A stretch of 64,000 bases of DNA from Deltaproteobacteria bacterium (GTDB lineage: Bacteria > Desulfobacterota > GWC2-55-46): contig JBBTBW010000006.1 of the NCBI GenBank assembly GCA_038043525.1, positions 77,442-141,441 on the forward strand, read 5' to 3'. The first letter of the stretch is position 1. The number at the start of each line of letters is the position of its first letter. Positions 18,302 through 25,237 of the stretch are shown here, one piece after another. A model generated the notes under the pieces. It worked only from the letters and a program-made list of their open reading frames with translations. It made no database searches and was not told where the DNA came from. Position numbers and translations under genes: made by a program.

Positions 18302-18379
<78 letters not shown>

Positions 18380-18385
18380 AAAATA

Positions 18386-19799
18386 ATCAGGGGTTACGCA
18401 ATTGCGTAACCCCTTTTTTGTTCTCAGAGGGGTTATTAGCTAACATTTTTCTAACAATACAATCTAAAGATACGGGGTATTCTCTTTGCTGGCTCAGATT
18501 TATAACCTGAACCCGCAGTAGAGTGAAATCTATCGAAATAGGTAATGAATTGGGTAGTGACCGATTGGAGAGCAAATGAAAAAATCAGAAGAACATTTGC
18601 TGTTTTCCTTAAGGCGGGCATTGAAAGATTTTAAATCAGATCCGTATGCTGACGGACGTTATGAAAGCCCACATTCTGAAGCAGAACTTGATTTGGACGA
18701 GAATGAACTACCTCTTCCATATATGGTGTTCTTGACATTGGTTACTTTTTCGGGTTTTTCATACTGGGGACGTGAGGAAAAAGTGGCTTGGTCTATACCG
18801 ATCCTCTATAAGGACATTCCTTTTTTATTGGCCTACCGTAAATTTGGATTCGACATAACGACGCCAGCCCTTACGAATGAAACCCGGAAAGCAGCAAAGG
18901 AAATGGTAAGCAAGCTACATAAGGGCATAGTTGTTGCCGACAAACTGCTGAAACCGTTTGCTGAGGCACAAATTAGAAAAAGAAACGTCACCATTCTCAA
19001 TAAATATCATAGTTTTAACAACAGATATCGTTTCTTTCGTGAGCAAGCGGCGCAAAGCTTCTCGAAACTGTCCCAAAGAGGCGCTTTGCAGACGAATAAA
19101 ACAACCAGTACAGTTGAAATATTAAATAACATCTCTACGTTAAGTAACGAAGGTTTCTATCATGCATCAGCTATGCTGGATGCTTATTTTAGTCGCCTGG
19201 AACACGTGCTTGTTTTGTTGCTCGCCTTTACCGATTACAATAGCAAAAAGGACGACCTGGTGAGATTTATAGGCTCCTTTTGGGACGATAAATTCACACG
19301 CATATTTGATATCCAAAAAGATGCTGGGGCAAAGAAATGTTACGATCGATTATGCAATATTAAAGACAGATTCCGGAATCCCCTTTCACATGGAGGTTTT
19401 GAAAGACAGGGAGCATCTCTCAACTTCCATGTACCTGTAGTAGGGGCAATACCTGTTCACCTTTCGAGATTCAAGGATAGTATTCATTATTCCTTTCACC
19501 CGATAGACGAAACCAGCTTCGAAGAGATATGTTCTTTGTTTGACAACGCCGATAAGCTTTTAGAAAACGGAGAAATAAAATTTGGCATGAGATATATAGA
19601 TAGTGGCCTTAACGTAGCCTTTGACGAAGACATGTTAAAGGAGTATCGGCAAGCAATACGATCTGAGAAAGAGATCGAAAATTTTATACAGCATCTGTCT
19701 GATCTATCAGATATGCACACGAATTTGAACTGGTGAGAACCTAACCACTTCATGACCCAATCCTCGCAACTACAGGCTCAGACTAAGTCTTAATGCGAA
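18386..19799. mobile_element. Degenerate tRNA-Met-integrated islet of about 1.4 kb with no integrase
   Basis: Bounded by the tRNA 3'-end direct repeat, with lower GC and a single cargo ORF. Confidence 0.5.
18576..19736 (+). CDS. Hypothetical protein (386 aa) of the tRNA-Met-associated insert; possible HEPN/Abi-like
   Basis: AT-rich ORF with no recognisable family. It contains an Rx4H motif (RNPLSH) of the kind found in HEPN nucleases. Confidence 0.5.
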   Translation: MKKSEEHLLFSLRRALKDFKSDPYADGRYESPHSEAELDLDENELPLPYMVFLTLVTFSGFSYWGREEKVAWSIPILYKDIPFLLAYRKFGFDITTPALTNETRKAAKEMVSKLHKGIVVADKLLKPFAEAQIRKRNVTILNKYHSFNNRYRFFREQAAQSFSKLSQRGALQTNKTTSTVEILNNISTLSNEGFYHASAMLDAYFSRLEHVLVLLLAFTDYNSKKDDLVRFIGSFWDDKFTRIFDIQKDAGAKKCYDRLCNIKDRFRNPLSHGGFERQGASLNFHVPVVGAIPVHLSRFKDSIHYSFHPIDETSFEEICSLFDNADKLLENGEIKFGMRYIDSGLNVAFDEDMLKEYRQAIRSEKEIENFIQHLSDLSDMHTNLNW

Positions 19800-19817
19800 T
19801 CCCCGCTACCAAAAATA
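19800..19817. repeat. 18-bp att-like direct repeat, right copy
   Basis: tccccgctaccaaaaata, followed by a hairpin aagagggtggtattcataccgccctctttt. Confidence 0.75.
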
Positions 19818-20071
19818 TAAAAGAGGGTGGTATTCATACCGCCCTCTTTTCTTATTTCAGGTTGTCAGGGATTGAAAGCAACTGAGGCCAAGAGAGTGGG
19901 AGCGAATGAACGCGGCCAGATCTCCAGGTCACTGATGACGATTTTGCCGCTGAATTTCAGGCCGTGTTTCCTTAAATGGAGACGCGGCTTTTTTCATTTC
20001 ATGCGTATGTTGCTTTGCCTGCGCGTTGGATGTTAATATCCTGAAATATTACGGATGGGACGGAGGCGTCT

Positions 20072-21640
20072 TTGGACCTGATAGTCAGCAATCTGCGCAT
20101 AGCCGTTGAGAGGGACGGAGTAGACGAATATCTGAAGGCCGCCTCTCAGAAGTTGCAGGTCGGCGTGAAGGCATTGAGTTTCGTCAAGATCCTCAGCAAA
20201 TCAATCGACGCGAGGAACAAAAAACAGTTTTTCTATGAGATCGCGATCGTGGTCGCCGTCCCTGAAGGGTTCAACAACCCTGAAGGCTTAGAGGTCTACA
20301 TAGAAAGACCAAAGACGGTCAAGGTGCTCAAAGGCCCTGTTGACAGGCCTATTATCGTAGGCTTCGGCCCTGCTGGTATGTTTGCCGCACTTGAGCTGAT
20401 AGAATACGGGCTCAAGCCGATAATATTCGAGAGAGGCAAAAAGATAGAAGAGCGCTCTGTAGATGTGCGCAGATTTATCAAGGAGAGGGTCCTTGACCCT
20501 GAGTCGAACATCCAGTTCGGCGAGGGCGGCGCAGGCTCATATTCGGATGGAAAGCTGTTTTCCAGGATAAAGAATTCCGAGTACATAGACAAGGTGTTAG
20601 ATACTTTTATCAGGTTCGGCGGACCGGAAGAGATAGGGTATATGCACAAGCCCCATCTCGGAACGGACGTCCTTTGTAAGATTGTCCGCAATATCAGGGA
20701 GCATATACTTGAGAGGGGCGGCCAGATCCATTACAGCTCGCGTATGACGGACATCATCATATCTGACGGCATGGCTTTGGGCGTTGTGATAAACGGCGGA
20801 AGCGAGTACCGTTCATCAAATATCTTCTTAGGCCTCGGCCATTCAGCGCGCGATACCTTCGAGATGCTTCACGCAAAAGGGGTCGCGATCGAGCAAAAGC
20901 CCATCTCCGTCGGCGTAAGGATCGAGCACCCGGCCGAGGTGATCAATGTTATGAGGCACGGAGAGAAGTACAAGTCATTCCCCGGGATCGGTGCGGCGAC
21001 GTATTCCTTGAGCCATAACGACCGTAAGATCGGCCGGGGGATATTTACCTTCTGCATGTGTCCGGGCGGCGAGGTTGTAAACGCCTCGTCAGAGGAAGGG
21101 ATGCATGTTGTAAACGGCATGAGCTACTCGACCAGGTCGTCTCCGTTTTCAAATTCGGCGATAGTCGTGACATGCAATACGGACGACTACGGCTCATCTG
21201 ACCCGCTGGCAGGGTTGGAATTCCAGAAGGCGATAGAGAGAAAGGCGTTTGCCTCTGCTGGGGGTGGATGGCAGGCCCCGGGACAGAACCTGATCGATTT
21301 TATGGCAGGAAGGGTCTCGAAGAGCCTGAATAAGAACTCGTTCGCAATGGGCCTTACTTCAGTTGATATGACGGAGGTCTTCCCGACCTTTGTAAATACA
21401 GCGCTCCTGTCAGCGTTCAACAAATGGAAGGATGCCTACCCGCTTTTCGTCTCGCACCATGCCTTGCTACTTGGTACTGAGACAAGGACGTCAGCCCCTT
21501 TAAGGCTCAAGCGGAGCGAGAGCTACGAGTCGGTAAACGTAAAAAACCTTATTCCGATAGGCGAGGGCTCAGGCTACACCGGAGGGATAACCAGCTCGGC
21601 CGCCGACGCTATAAAGGCTGTTGAGGCGCGGATGGGGTAG
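20072..21640 (+). CDS. FAD-dependent oxidoreductase (COG2509-like uncharacterised FAD-dependent dehydrogenase)
   Basis: Dinucleotide-binding GxGxxG (VGFGPAGMFAALE), an E 19 residues downstream (FERG), and 522-aa length. Confidence 0.6.
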   Translation: MDLIVSNLRIAVERDGVDEYLKAASQKLQVGVKALSFVKILSKSIDARNKKQFFYEIAIVVAVPEGFNNPEGLEVYIERPKTVKVLKGPVDRPIIVGFGPAGMFAALELIEYGLKPIIFERGKKIEERSVDVRRFIKERVLDPESNIQFGEGGAGSYSDGKLFSRIKNSEYIDKVLDTFIRFGGPEEIGYMHKPHLGTDVLCKIVRNIREHILERGGQIHYSSRMTDIIISDGMALGVVINGGSEYRSSNIFLGLGHSARDTFEMLHAKGVAIEQKPISVGVRIEHPAEVINVMRHGEKYKSFPGIGAATYSLSHNDRKIGRGIFTFCMCPGGEVVNASSEEGMHVVNGMSYSTRSSPFSNSAIVVTCNTDDYGSSDPLAGLEFQKAIERKAFASAGGGWQAPGQNLIDFMAGRVSKSLNKNSFAMGLTSVDMTEVFPTFVNTALLSAFNKWKDAYPLFVSHHALLLGTETRTSAPLRLKRSESYESVNVKNLIPIGEGSGYTGGITSSAADAIKAVEARMG

Positions 21641-21654
21641 GGCGCGCAGGTGAG

Positions 21655-21692
21655 GCTAATCCCTCCCGGCCTCACCTTAAATAAGGGGAGGA
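21655..21692. repeat. 38-bp hairpin-containing direct repeat, copy 1 (upstream of DUF559)
   Basis: ctaatccctcccggcctcaccttaaataaggggaggag matches 22158..22195 with 2 mismatches. Confidence 0.8.
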
Positions 21693-21809
21693 GCAAGACA
21701 ATGCCCCTATTTTTTCAAGAGATATTAATAGCGTAGTTGAGACGTTGAAAGAGCGCGCGGAGAAGTAAAGACAAAGCCCCCCTCTTTTTAAAGAGGGGCT
21801 GGGGGAGTT

Positions 21810-22244
21810 ATGAGGTTCCCGCACAACAACCAGAAGCTGAAAAAGAAGAGGCGTGAACTCAGACGGAATCAGACAGACGCTGAAAAGATGCTTTGGGCAC
21901 GGTTACGCAATAAACAATTTTATGGCGTAAAGTTCTTTCGACAATACAGCATGGGTGAGTATGTCCTGGATTTTTACTGCCCATCGCTAAAAGCCGCTAT
22001 AGAGCTGGACGGTGGACAGCACGCTGAAGACGAACAACGTAATCGCGACACTATACGCACAAACTATCTGCAAACGCATGAGATTACAGTCCTGCGATTC
22101 TGGAATAACGACGTACTCTCTAATATGGAGGGCGTCCTTGAGGAAATGTCCACACGACTAACCCCTCCCGGCCTCCCCTTAAATAAGGGGAGGAGTGAAG
22201 AAAAAGAAGAGGCGCAAACTCAGGCGGAAATATATAGGCGGTGA
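21810..22244 (+). CDS. DUF559 endonuclease-domain protein (Vsr-like fold)
   Basis: Hallmark DUF559 block: TDAEKMLWARLRN...FRQY...YVLDFYCPSLKAAIELDGGQH...RD...L...G..VLRF. Confidence 0.8.
   Translation: MRFPHNNQKLKKKRRELRRNQTDAEKMLWARLRNKQFYGVKFFRQYSMGEYVLDFYCPSLKAAIELDGGQHAEDEQRNRDTIRTNYLQTHEITVLRFWNNDVLSNMEGVLEEMSTRLTPPGLPLNKGRSEEKEEAQTQAEIYRR
22158..22195. repeat. 38-bp direct repeat, copy 2 (inside the 3' end of the DUF559 gene)
   Basis: ctaacccctcccggcctccccttaaataaggggaggag. Confidence 0.8.
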
Positions 22245-22619
22245 AAGTTTTTTTTAATCATCAGATTGAATCACGATGTGTATTGACGTAGCTGTTGCGG
22301 TACCTAAGTGGCGCTTAAAAGTTTTTTGGCCATCATCTTGAGATTCGCTGGTTCAGTAGCGAAGTGCAACACTTGGGAGAGCAGAAAGGAAGATTGCCTA
22401 ATCAATAACAGGCCCGGAAAATGCATAGGCTTCAGAAAACCAATCGAAGCAGCTGCTCCCTCCGTTGTACTTTAAGGTTGAATTCGGAGATTGGATCTGC
22501 CGGCCGCTGTCCGGTTCGTGTTCGGGTTGGATTGTCAGTTTCTTTTTTTCGGGTGGATTAACGGCGCTTTCGTGATATTCTGATGGGGTTAGTTTATCGA
22601 CATTCAAAGAGGCGCTACA

Positions 22620-23882
22620 GTGACGGAAGAAATCATAAAATGCCCTTCGTGCGGCTCGAATATCCCGCTTAATGAAACGCTTGCCAATCAGGCGAAGGAG
22701 AGCGCGAGGAAGGAGTTCGAGGCCCGCGGACGTGAAAAGGATAGTGAGATAAAGAGGCGTGAAGAGGAGCTTGAGCGCGCCCGCCAGGAGATCGAGGCCT
22801 CGAAAAAGGCTGTAGCCGAGACCGTTGAAAAGAGGCTCGCCTCCGAGAAGCTGAGGTTGTCCCTGGAAGCAGAAAAGAAAGCGCGCGAAGCGGTGCTTGT
22901 CGAGTTAAACGACCTGAATGCCGCAACAGCCGAGAAGGACAAGCTCCTTGCCGGTGCAAGGGATGCCGAGCTTGAGCAGAGGAAAAAGGCGAGAGACCTT
23001 GGGGAGAGGAACAAGACTCTTGAGCTTGATATGGCAAGAAAGATGGATGAGGAGAGGGAGCGGATAAAGGCCGCGGCTTTTGACACCTTCTCTGAGGAGC
23101 ACAGGCTCAAGGACCTTGAAAAGGACAAACAGCTCGGCGACATGAGAAAGACGATCGATGAGCTGAAGAGAAAGTCAGAGCAGGGATCGATGCAGACGCA
23201 GGGCGAGGTCCTTGAACTCGACCTTGAGTCCATGTTAAAGACAAGGTTCCCTATAGACGCGATAGAGCCGGTGATGAAAGGAAGGCGCGGCGCAGATATA
23301 CTGCACAGGGTCTACACAAGGGGTGGGACTATCTGCGGCACAATAATCTGGGAATTCAAGTCCACAAAGGCATGGTCTGACGACTGGATAGCAAAGCTTA
23401 AGGACGACCAGCGCGAAGAGCGCGCCGATATCGCGGTTATCGTGACAGGGACGATGCCTAAGGGAGTAGCTGCCTTCGCCCTTGTAGAAGGCGTCTGGGT
23501 GACCTCTATAGCCCTTGCCGGGCCTCTTGCCGAGGCGCTCAGGGTAAACCTCATCCAGCTTTCATCTTCGAGGCTCGCCTCGGTTGGCAAGAACGAGAAG
23601 ATGGAGGCGATATATAATTATCTTACCGGTCCCGAGTTCAGGCAAAAGGTGGAGGCGATTGCAGAGGCCTTTACAGCCATGAAAGACGACCTGGAACAAG
23701 AAAAAAGGGCCATGCACAGGATATGGGCCAAGAGGGATAAGCAGATAGAGCGTGTCGTCACGAACACGCTTCGGATGTACGGCGACGTTCAAGGCATCGC
23801 GATGCTCCCTGATATAAAATCGCTTGAGCTTGGTGCAGGCGCTGTTGATTCCGAGTCAGAGGATGGAACTGGGCTTTTTTAG
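22620..23882 (+). CDS. DUF2130-family protein: N-terminal zinc ribbon, long coiled coil, C-terminal PD-(D/E)xK-like domain
   Basis: CPSCGS, a roughly 180-residue E/K/R-rich coiled coil, then GADILHRV...GTIIWEFKS...IAVIVT, consistent with DUF2130. Confidence 0.65.
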   Translation: MTEEIIKCPSCGSNIPLNETLANQAKESARKEFEARGREKDSEIKRREEELERARQEIEASKKAVAETVEKRLASEKLRLSLEAEKKAREAVLVELNDLNAATAEKDKLLAGARDAELEQRKKARDLGERNKTLELDMARKMDEERERIKAAAFDTFSEEHRLKDLEKDKQLGDMRKTIDELKRKSEQGSMQTQGEVLELDLESMLKTRFPIDAIEPVMKGRRGADILHRVYTRGGTICGTIIWEFKSTKAWSDDWIAKLKDDQREERADIAVIVTGTMPKGVAAFALVEGVWVTSIALAGPLAEALRVNLIQLSSSRLASVGKNEKMEAIYNYLTGPEFRQKVEAIAEAFTAMKDDLEQEKRAMHRIWAKRDKQIERVVTNTLRMYGDVQGIAMLPDIKSLELGAGAVDSESEDGTGLF

Positions 23883-24475: not shown

Positions 24476-25237
24476 CTATTCCAGGTCTATCGTCATTCCG
24501 TCGTAGGCGAGCTCGACTCCCTTAGGCAGAAGCCCGTTGTCTCTCTCGTAGTCGAGGCCGTGGCCGAGGTGCGTAAGGAGCGTCCGCCCGGGTTTGAGCA
24601 TGCCGGCGACCTCTATCGCTTGCTCTATCGTAAAATGCGTTGGATGCGGCTTGTGCCTGAGAGCGCCTATGACAAGGACCTCGATCCCTTCAAGCAGCCT
24701 GATAGATTCGGCAGGTATCGAGCTGCAGTCAGTGACGTACGCGGCTTTGCCTATGCGGTAGCCGAGTATCTGCGCCCTTCCGTGGTATATGTCTATCGGG
24801 GTGATTTTAACGCCTGCCGCTTCGAACGGCCCTGACACCTCAGAGGCCGTAAGGTTGGGCTTCCATCCATCCATGCCGTCGTCGGAGAATATGTAGTCGA
24901 ACATGGTCTTTATGCGCCCTATCGTGAAGGGGTTGCCATAGCATGGTATGGCGTCTTTTTGCACCATGTTGAAGGACCTGAGGTCGTCTATGCCGTGGAT
25001 ATGGTCTGCGTGGGGGTGCGTGAAAAGGACTGCGTCTACCCGCTCGACCCTGTTGGCGAGCGCCTGGGTCCTCAGATCTGTGGATGTGTCTATCAGGAGG
25101 TTCTTGCCGCAGGTATGAACGAGCAGGGATGACCTTGTGCGCTTGTTGCGGGCGTCATCCGAGGAACATACTGTGCAGTGGCAGCCTATGACTGGCACCC
25201 CTGTGGAAGTGCCGCATCCAAGTACGGTCAGTTTCAT
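24476..25237 (-). CDS. MBL-fold metallo-hydrolase (PhnP/ElaC-like)
   Basis: HPHADHIHG metal-binding motif, 253 aa. Confidence 0.8.
   Translation of the reverse strand: MKLTVLGCGTSTGVPVIGCHCTVCSSDDARNKRTRSSLLVHTCGKNLLIDTSTDLRTQALANRVERVDAVLFTHPHADHIHGIDDLRSFNMVQKDAIPCYGNPFTIGRIKTMFDYIFSDDGMDGWKPNLTASEVSGPFEAAGVKITPIDIYHGRAQILGYRIGKAAYVTDCSSIPAESIRLLEGIEVLVIGALRHKPHPTHFTIEQAIEVAGMLKPGRTLLTHLGHGLDYERDNGLLPKGVELAYDGMTIDLE

Follow-up and report, generated by a model that had tools for sequence, protein, structure and literature searches.

A DUF559 endonuclease gene bracketed by mobile palindromic repeats points to a probable REP/RAYT-like partnership on a Vsr-like fold

Introduction

[quoted passage not shown] A DUF559 domain is also carried by Caulobacter VsrA, which behaves as a genotoxic repair-type nuclease tied to cytosine methylation, damages DNA in vivo, triggers the SOS response, and has been interpreted as a mismatch-repair nuclease (PMC12907096). 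Here, we analyze a 64,000-nucleotide stretch of a Deltaproteobacteria bacterium genome (assembly GCA_038043525.1, contig JBBTBW010000006.1, positions 77,442 to 141,441; the whole stretch is referred to as the window), in which a DUF559 endonuclease gene lies between hairpin-forming repeats, and we find that the gene and its hairpins form a discrete mobile unit of ~420 nt.

With REP/RAYT systems, this locus shares short palindromic, mostly intergenic, high-copy repeats that have a conserved terminal tetranucleotide and lack target duplications, together with a single small nuclease gene that is characteristically flanked by the repeats and outnumbered by many solo copies. However, the enzyme here is of the Vsr-like PD-(D/E)xK type and not of the HUH/Y1 type found in RAYTs, and the tags are TAAC/GTTA rather than GTAG/CGTC. 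RAYTs are known as single-copy and vertically inherited, whereas the DUF559 gene is often multi-copy and shared between phyla, and the gene-plus-hairpins unit itself moves. Common ground with the EDxHD homing endonucleases lies in the Vsr-like catalytic domain, the E..D..H residues, and a selfish presence/absence polymorphism at a conserved site, but the present protein has no N-terminal NUMOD/helix-turn-helix (HTH) domain, and its gene resides outside introns and inteins and is flanked by repeated palindromes instead of a unique host gene. Vsr and VsrA belong to the same fold superfamily, and VsrA has a DUF559 domain; the present gene differs from Vsr in that its product does not match the Vsr family model, in that no cytosine methyltransferase is encoded nearby, and in being mobile and repeat-embedded. 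Rickettsia palindromic elements and cyanobacterial small dispersed repeats are likewise tiny mobile palindromes that can be located in frame within protein-coding genes, as one copy of the present repeat is, and they are not known to have an associated nuclease gene. Lastly, IS200/IS605 elements and attC sites also have folded imperfect palindromes at their ends and no target duplication, but a Y1 transposase, TnpB, or integrase neither occurs here nor recurs among the loci compared. Based on the comparisons below, we consider it probable that DUF559 and its repeats form a nuclease-repeat partnership analogous to RAYT-REP on a PD-(D/E)xK fold, and that the adjacent DUF2130 gene is an unrelated neighbor.

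Results

The window contains two copies of a 38-nt direct repeat, at 21656-21693 and 22158-22195 of the plus strand, which are identical at 36 of 38 positions (95%) and are the only copies in its 64 kb (0 expected from shuffles). Each copy, denoted '<A', consists of a pyrimidine 5' tail, (C)TAACCCCTCC, followed by three bases and a stem-loop. In copy 2, the tail TAACCCCTCC (22159-22168) and CGG precede CCTCCCCTT-AAAT-AAGGGGAGG (22172-22193), which folds to a perfect 9-bp stem (DNA free energy, dG, -9.5; z -3.0), while in copy 1 the tail CTAATCCCTCC and CGG precede CCTCACCTT-AAAT-AAGGGGAGG, with a single stem mismatch (DNA dG -6.4, z -1.5). Between them lies the DUF559 open reading frame (ORF; 21810-22244, plus strand, 144 aa), of which residues 1-117 (21810-22160) make up a Vsr-like PD-(D/E)xK nuclease core and residues 118 onward (TPPGLPLNKGRS...) are translated from copy 2, which supplies T118-S129. 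These data confirm what a first-pass annotation of the stretch had proposed from its letters, namely that 38-bp repeats flank the DUF559 gene and that the second copy encodes its C terminus. Upstream of the gene, we identified a second hairpin type that had been overlooked, element 'B>' (21777-21810, plus strand), in which the stem-loop CCCCTCTT-TTTA-AAGAGGGG (21779-21798) is followed by the 3' tail GGGGGAGTTA (21801-21810), whose final A is the A of the ATG start codon. A contig of a groundwater metagenome-assembled genome (MAG; GCA_964356895.1, Hainich H41) matches the window.

The encoded protein is a DUF559 member, matching PF04480 over residues 9-117 (E 1e-35; 122 bits vs a cutoff of 20.6), and is closest in the PDB to the solved DUF559 member 3HRL (phmmer E 3e-20; Foldseek E 6e-8, template modeling score 0.83). 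The second-best Foldseek match is 3R3P, the homing endonuclease I-Bth0305I (E 7e-4, template modeling score 0.71-0.73), and PHROG homing-endonuclease families match the protein too. Residues E65, D67, and H71 (E-x-D-x3-H) are intact in the window and invariant among homologs. AlphaFold models the core with a predicted local distance difference test score (pLDDT) of ~90 and the C-terminal tail as disordered (<50 for residues 124-135). The ratio of nonsynonymous to synonymous substitution rates is 0.06-0.14, and the nuclease is evolving under purifying selection. The Vsr family model PF03852 is absent among the Pfam hits of the window protein at E <= 0.01, the 10 kb to either side of the gene hold no methyltransferase gene, and the protein, which is limited to the 117-aa catalytic core, has no N-terminal NUMOD/HTH DNA-binding region. 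The gene is free-standing and intergenic, and lies neither in a group I intron nor in an intein.

The hairpins proved to be a property of the gene family and not of this locus alone. We compared 80 loci at 52-75% identity from GTDB species genomes, which comprise Nitrospirota, Desulfobacterota/"Deltaproteobacteria", eleven Patescibacteria, and a Myxococcota genome. DUF559 homologs at ~60% identity are usually 124-129 aa long, and nearly all end in TPPxLP(L/F)xKGE, with T118, P119, P120, and P123 nearly invariant; this peptide is the in-frame translation of TAACCCCTCC-nnn-CCTCCCCTTA...TAAGGGGAGG. A pyrimidine/purine hairpin ends within 60 nt upstream of the start codon in 68 of 82 genes, and one begins within 60 nt after residue 117 in 71 of 82. 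Of the 332 hairpins detected overall, 240 are no more than 200 nt away from a gene end, compared to a single hairpin in 571 kb of shuffled DNA. Elements and gene are usually arranged as (<A) B> gene <A (B>), with "<" standing for TAAC plus a pyrimidine tail and ">" for a purine tail plus GTTA. The start codon forms an exact GTTATG junction in 27 of 83 genes, and a tail is found no more than 80 nt away in 72 of 83, while at the other end 39 of 83 have TAAC starting with the second base of codon 117. The encoded tail changes with the type of element, a B-type element giving TPPIPPLNLRGG, and the position of the DUF559 stop codon varies, falling in or after the hairpin loop. Since the tail follows the element type, the stops vary, and the tail is disordered in the AlphaFold model, the conserved "C terminus" is a by-product of a conserved DNA element. 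Separately, database DUF559 proteins are often lengthened at the N or C terminus by translated hairpins (e.g., LAKRGLGGV, KGEE...), as in Sphingomonas WP_347091088.1 (L225) and entries P0026, P0097, and P0038; these extensions are annotation artifacts.

We found that the stems are maintained as palindromes. When junction sequences were picked by position alone, the stem was paired in 88% of cells compared to 44-71% in slid controls, and changes on both sides were present in 43 cells compared to 17.6 in shuffles (0/500); compensatory changes keep the stems palindromic. Within the stem, the third pair mainly alternates between U-A and C-G and the sixth between C-G and U-A, variants that correspond to element types A, B, and C. 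Stem mismatches showed no excess of sense-strand G.U pairs (32 vs 34), which lends no support to a purely RNA-level role. In the comparisons that gave the substitution-rate ratio, third codon positions are 64-68% identical, compared to just 2-3 differences in the two hairpins (~92% identity or higher in a count by eye that allowed one-base gaps), and synonymous sites are less conserved than the hairpins. The flanking copies of a given locus have the same loop sequence in 9 of 19 cases for A and 9 of 30 for B, while the figure between loci is ~2%, which shows that flanks arise by local duplication or conversion.

A search of JGI metagenome contigs seeded with the repeat (TAACCCCTCCnnnCCTCCCCTTAnnnTAAGGGGAGG) returned at least 129 copies on at least 120 contigs, and the counts and forms that follow hold among the matches listed (129 copies). 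Most of these are solos (108), while two lie at the 3' end of a DUF559 gene, six lie within 1 kb of one, and 13 are too close to a contig end for classification; solos outnumber gene-linked copies by ~15 to 1. Complete solos are either 48-50-nt <A> elements with complementary tails (TAACCCCTCC and GGTGGGGTTA), for which the full 49-nt form is TAACCCCTCC-nnn-CCTCCCCTTA-nnn-TAAGGGGAGG-nnnn-GGTGGGGTTA, or 76-108-nt <A..B> composites, typically two hairpins in ~80 nt. Their ends extend weakly to TCA-TAAC...GTTA-TGA, they occur in either orientation, and no target-site duplication accompanies them. The 38-nt repeats of the window are three-quarter copies of a widespread miniature palindromic element with the termini TAAC...GTTA. 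Where two elements abut, GGGGAGTTA/TAACCCC (the slash marks the boundary) is a palindromic junction, and one composite, at locus L059, folds as a three-way junction (dG -24.6, z -3.7). In Rfam scans, the window region gave the tRNA alone, and L059 gave nothing beyond miRNA noise below threshold.

Among the genes that accompany the elements, only DUF559 recurs as a specific family, being present at all 80 gene-seeded loci and on 7 of the 120 repeat-seeded contigs; no recurrent transposase, RAYT, or integrase was found among all ORFs of the 80 loci and the 120 listed contigs. Two placements of individual solos were also recorded. In L128 (~1300-1390), an <A..B> element of ~27 codons lies in frame within a leucyl-tRNA-synthetase-like (leuS-like) ORF, and in L092 (12440-12700), solos of several types and both orientations are packed between the phosphoketolase and acetate kinase genes.

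Comparison of orthologous sites revealed that the insertion is polymorphic. In locus L091 (GCA_040960315.1, a 1.25-Mb contig), the ortholog of the flavin adenine dinucleotide (FAD)-dependent dehydrogenase gene that precedes the insertion is 93% identical and the gene order is the same on both sides, and the sequence joins window position 21641 to about 22523-22535 (junction ..GATGGGGTAG/GCAGTCTC..), leaving 84 nt between the stop codon and DUF2130 and no element there. In L092 (GCA_016234855.1), where the ortholog is 82% identical, a compact gene-less <A..B> composite, TAACCCCTCC-CGG-TCTCCACTTAAATAAGGGGAGG-AGTAAAAGCGAATA-CCCCCTCTTTTTAAAGAAGGGG-CAG-GGGGAGTTA, begins 7 nt past the orthologous stop codon. 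The orthologous spot thus exists in three states, which are empty (L091), solo element (L092), and cassette array (the window and L084). Either precise loss occurred in L091 or gain was repeated at one site, and parsimony favors neither; both cases imply mobility.

The boundaries of the moving unit were given by copies in unrelated contexts. The DNA that these share with the window runs only from 21778 to 22195-22201, at 84% identity in L085, a JGI contig on which the cassette lies between a cytochrome-like gene and a SurA-like gene, and at 82% identity in L004, a DUF559 copy elsewhere in the MAG that also holds L092. In both, homology stops at the first base of stem-loop B and the last base of stem-loop A. 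B> + DUF559 + <A (21777-22195, ~420 nt) is therefore a discrete unit that moves as one piece. Together with the empty site in L091 and the family-wide hairpin-encoded C terminus, this bears out the earlier suggestion of a selfish inserted cassette. The DUF559 gene is often multi-copy, with 43-97% identity within one MAG. No convincing terminal inverted repeats or target duplication were found at the ends of the window insertion, and such features of MITEs (miniature transposable elements with inverted repeats) and DDE transposition, which are also absent from the listed solos, occur in a subset of loci (L047, L011, L026). Locus L086, whose DUF2130 is 82% identical, was considered as an empty site and ruled out, having a different upstream gene. 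A metagenome scan with the FAD-dependent protein for empty sites returned nothing, the empty site having come from protein homologs. L054 and L072, two loci of one MAG whose proteins are 97% identical, have 1.4 kb in common, flanks included, and thus carry no information on unit boundaries.

The whole inserted block in the window, which had also been overlooked, is larger than one unit, extending for ~0.89 kb on the plus strand (21642-22529) from the dehydrogenase stop codon to the conserved region upstream of DUF2130, and it holds debris of one or two further cassette copies. Directly after repeat copy 2, the plus-strand segment 22200-22246 matches 21839-21885 at 81% DNA identity, again unnoticed before; it is also found in L084 and gives the 144-aa ORF its last residues and stop codon. 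Since hidden Markov model (HMM) searches for decayed DUF559 remnants in the spacers gave non-significant scores throughout, it is this 81% DNA repeat that points to leftover N-terminal coding sequence (codons ~10-26) from a second DUF559 copy. The spacer between the first A and B (21694-21776, plus strand) begins with a conserved linker, AGCAAGAC, common to L085, L059, and L109, and ends with GGAGAAGTAAAGAC, which resembles an A-to-B linker; judging from its reading frame (..VVETLKERAEK-stop), it may carry a remnant of a DUF559 3' end, with a non-significant HMM score. A 229-nt segment (22264-22493, no strand assigned) bounded by TTGAAT direct repeats has no Rfam or protein match and no counterpart in L084, which is 91% identical at the DNA level and otherwise has the insertion. 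At the right end, 22523-22535 weakly resembles the 3' end of the dehydrogenase gene (21629-21641), and each of the two aligns with L091 11600-11612; the host gene end may have been co-amplified here, as in L059.

Such tandem arrays and debris are common around DUF559 cassettes. Inside a type I restriction-modification locus in L059 (3100-4700), four tandem 220-nt units lie upstream of an intact DUF559 gene, and each combines an hsdS-like gene's 3' end with an <A..B> element and the remnant of a DUF559 5' end.

The architecture extends to other lineages with repeats of their own. We found it around GC-rich DUF559 relatives on IMG/VR contigs, where the repeat sequences differ, and with lineage-specific repeats in Sphingomonas (where the RefSeq coding sequence is extended across the hairpins), Azospirillum, Deinococcus, Picosynechococcus PCC 7002 (plasmid pAQ6), and Sinorhizobium. 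The ycjD gene of E. coli K-12 (L231, NC_000913.3 1351040-1351460) reads into a C-rich hairpin, TCACCCTCTCCC-TGAAA-GAGCGAGGGG, and its protein ends in ..LNRRSPSP; after the gene come a degraded duplicate of its 3' end and, next, CCCCTCGCCCCTC-TG-GGGAGAGGG-TTAGGGTGAGGGG, a hairpin plus GGGTTAGGGTGAGGGG. BoxC is present in E. coli K-12 as 33 copies of 51-59 bp (PMC5172473, PMC2267715). Every one of the 5,426 complete E. coli genomes contains the repeat that flanks ycjD, with a median of 17 places per genome and a maximum of 31. BoxC was first described near fabI, the gene next to ycjD, and going by copy number, size, and this location, the ycjD-flanking repeat is probably BoxC. The E. coli locus resembles the window in that the gene ends in a C-rich tail and hairpin, is followed by its own decayed 3' copy, and is associated with a dispersed repeat, but the repeat is of the CCCTCTCCC/GGGAGAGGG type, and the gene is single-copy and fixed in position.

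The gene downstream of the insertion encodes a DUF2130 protein (22620-23882, plus strand; PF09903, E 2e-71, 240 bits), begins 375 nt past the DUF559 ORF, and lies outside the element. Its catalytic D-E-K, which the first-pass annotation had marked for checking, is intact, as the D226...E245-x-K247 motif is invariant in 30 homologs. The coiled coil that had been described is borne out by a single AlphaFold helix over residues 17-186 (the nuclease domain is modeled at low confidence, pLDDT 40-60), but the zinc ribbon is not, since the only conserved cysteines form a single CPxC (C8, C11), which makes it a knuckle rather than a four-Cys ribbon. The gene order DUF2130, 92-aa protein, metallo-beta-lactamase (MBL)-fold protein, cytochrome b5, M50 protease, AI-2E transporter, and ThiI is complete at 64% identity, and closer DUF2130 relatives keep it over the part covered by their shorter contigs. 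DUF2130 is present where DUF559 is absent and was found at 0 of 80 other DUF559 loci, and it appears to be an unrelated, vertically inherited neighbor. The MBL-fold protein (24476-25237, minus strand) has a precomputed Pfam hit to Anti-Pycsar_Apyc1, yet is core-syntenic in all relatives examined. Farther upstream, a tRNA-Met gene (18303-18379) adjoins a variable islet (18387-19958) with a 386-aa ORF (18576-19736) that has no Pfam, PADLOC, NCBIfam, or PHROG hit, and in L091 the islet carries a different, 148-aa ORF instead. Across the region, PADLOC, NCBIfam, and PHROGs returned no defense system, only weak nuclease-domain or coiled-coil similarities.

Discussion

Our findings suggest how a small nuclease and its repeats might act together. 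The 117-aa Vsr-like endonuclease, probably as a dimer, would recognize and nick or cut its cognate palindromes or the GTTA/TAAC junction between two elements, which is where the DUF559 gene seems always to sit. Repair of the break using the outer element copies as homology could then convert a solo A..B into A..B-gene-A..B, a homing-like copying of the gene, and recombination between the flanking direct repeats would lead back to solos and to circles. Repair or recombination between element copies might also yield the tandem arrays. DUF559-containing repeats in Legionella are intragenomic recombination hot spots, and these, along with the SOS response to VsrA, fit a recombinogenic, DNA-damaging enzyme, short of proof.

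Several observations weigh against this proposal. The empty site in L091, the closest relative, is wholly without an element, which means that insertion needs no resident element or that the loss was precise. The order B> gene <A is permuted relative to the solo <A..B>, and a simple model with the gene inside the element fails to predict this. In 64 kb of this genome there are only three elements, all at the DUF559 locus, and no solos. VsrA, as an experimentally studied DUF559 protein, has been read as a mismatch-repair nuclease. At about ten loci (L047 3926-4440, L009, L011, L026, and L058, and partly L015, L018, L031, and L057), the cassette is enclosed by a MITE-like element whose terminal inverted repeats are 24 nt long (GGTTCTTCCGGCTTTTGTGTGGGT) and which shows target duplications of 8-9 bp (e.g., TAATTATAA), and there another transposase may do the moving. 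Lastly, the action of DUF559 on the repeats is itself an inference.

The strongest competing explanation is that the repeats are REP- or MITE-like sequences moved by another enzyme (a RAYT, an insertion sequence transposase, or host recombination) and that DUF559 is an ordinary Vsr-like repair nuclease carried along as a passenger. We regard this as unlikely, though it deserves real weight. It would suit the ~15 to 1 preponderance of solos over gene-linked copies among the matches listed, the repair-type genotoxicity of Caulobacter VsrA with its tie to cytosine methylation, and the MITE-like subset, in which terminal inverted repeats and 8-9-bp target duplications are typical of DDE transposition in trans and a gene-less derivative exists (L019 1358-1585). 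However, DUF559 alone recurs in 200 loci (120 of them from the matches listed), with no transposase or RAYT; the junctions are exact and conserved, the ATG lying inside GTTATG and codon 117 overlapping TAAC; and neither flank of the window gene carries a methyltransferase gene over 10 kb. Since distant DUF559 subfamilies show the same architecture with different repeats, chance landing of the gene among them is hard to accept.

We also considered an RNA-level role, in which the hairpins are terminators, mRNA-stabilizing stem-loops, or translational regulators of DUF559 and their spread is incidental. Hairpin B sequesters the sole purine-rich stretch upstream of the ATG, with GGAG only 2 nt from it, and could thereby throttle translation of a toxic nuclease, while hairpin A is situated at the 3' end of the ORF. 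Nevertheless, no T-run follows A or B on the plus strand and a scan gives no plus-strand terminator at either copy of A or at B, the stem sequence itself is conserved across phyla beyond its pairing, the mismatches lack a sense-strand G.U bias, no Rfam family matches, and most copies among the matches listed are solos in either orientation, with one in frame within an ORF. This makes an RNA-level role very improbable. The first-pass annotation had named an ordinary terminator motif, abundant genome-wide and unrelated to DUF559, as the finding that would speak against a cassette; the repeat family is indeed abundant and mostly solo in metagenomes, but it is no ordinary terminator and is tied specifically to DUF559.

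Slightly less credible still is an RNA-guided or RNA-partnered nuclease, with the structure at the 3' end of the ORF acting as a non-coding RNA like the omega-RNAs of TnpB and IscB. A conserved structured element does overlap the nuclease ORF at its 3' end, where the mobile unit has its edge, but the protein has just 117 aa and no RNA-binding module, the hairpin is 22 nt of fixed sequence with no variable guide segment, and strand asymmetry is absent.

The earlier proposal that DUF559, DUF2130, and the tRNA-Met islet form a defense-like patch, acting jointly against phages, does not survive. Both proteins have nuclease folds, a variable islet adjoins the tRNA, and weak domain-level PADLOC/NCBIfam hits are present (DpdF, mREase, ProA), but those hits are short nuclease-domain or coiled-coil similarities, and the islet lies 2 kb from the cassette with a housekeeping gene between. 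Since DUF2130 is core-syntenic, occurs without DUF559, and is linked to it at none of the 80 other DUF559 loci, synteny already contradicts this idea, to which we assign almost no credence. The same negligible standing applies to an integron-like cassette with the hairpin composite as an attC-type site (RYYYAAC...GTTRRRY) for an integrase. The TAAC...GTTA termini, the folded imperfect palindrome, the small ORF without a promoter of its own, and the tandem arrays resemble integron cassettes, but no integrase lies within 10 kb on either side or recurs across loci, DUF559 is the only cargo, the element sequence is conserved across phyla as attC sites are not, and GTTATGA and GTTACGA fit GTTRRRY poorly.

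The partnership between DUF559 and its palindromes would be a REP/RAYT-like, homing-like system built on a Vsr-fold nuclease, and the literature searched contained no link between DUF559 and palindromic repeats. A broader reading, that DUF559 nucleases serve as dedicated enzymes for C-rich/G-rich hairpin repeats of one pan-bacterial superfamily, which includes the long-unexplained BoxC repeats of E. coli, a second REP/RAYT-like partnership on a Vsr-like fold, is a tentative one that we put forward with less than even confidence. If it is true, the ~420-bp hairpin-gene-hairpin cassette would rank among the smallest known autonomous mobile elements.

The DUF559 nucleases make up a very large family that is uncharacterized and annotated only as "endonuclease domain-containing" or "very-short-patch-repair endonuclease". 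The systematic palindromic bracketing, the mobile ~420-nt unit, and the solos give it a concrete, testable role, and would provide an origin or a partner for small repeats found from groundwater Nitrospirota and Patescibacteria to E. coli. Many DUF559 proteins in databases carry translated-hairpin extensions, and such repeats may sit in frame inside other genes too. Through ycjD and its adjacent repeats, the hypothesis is directly testable in E. coli K-12.

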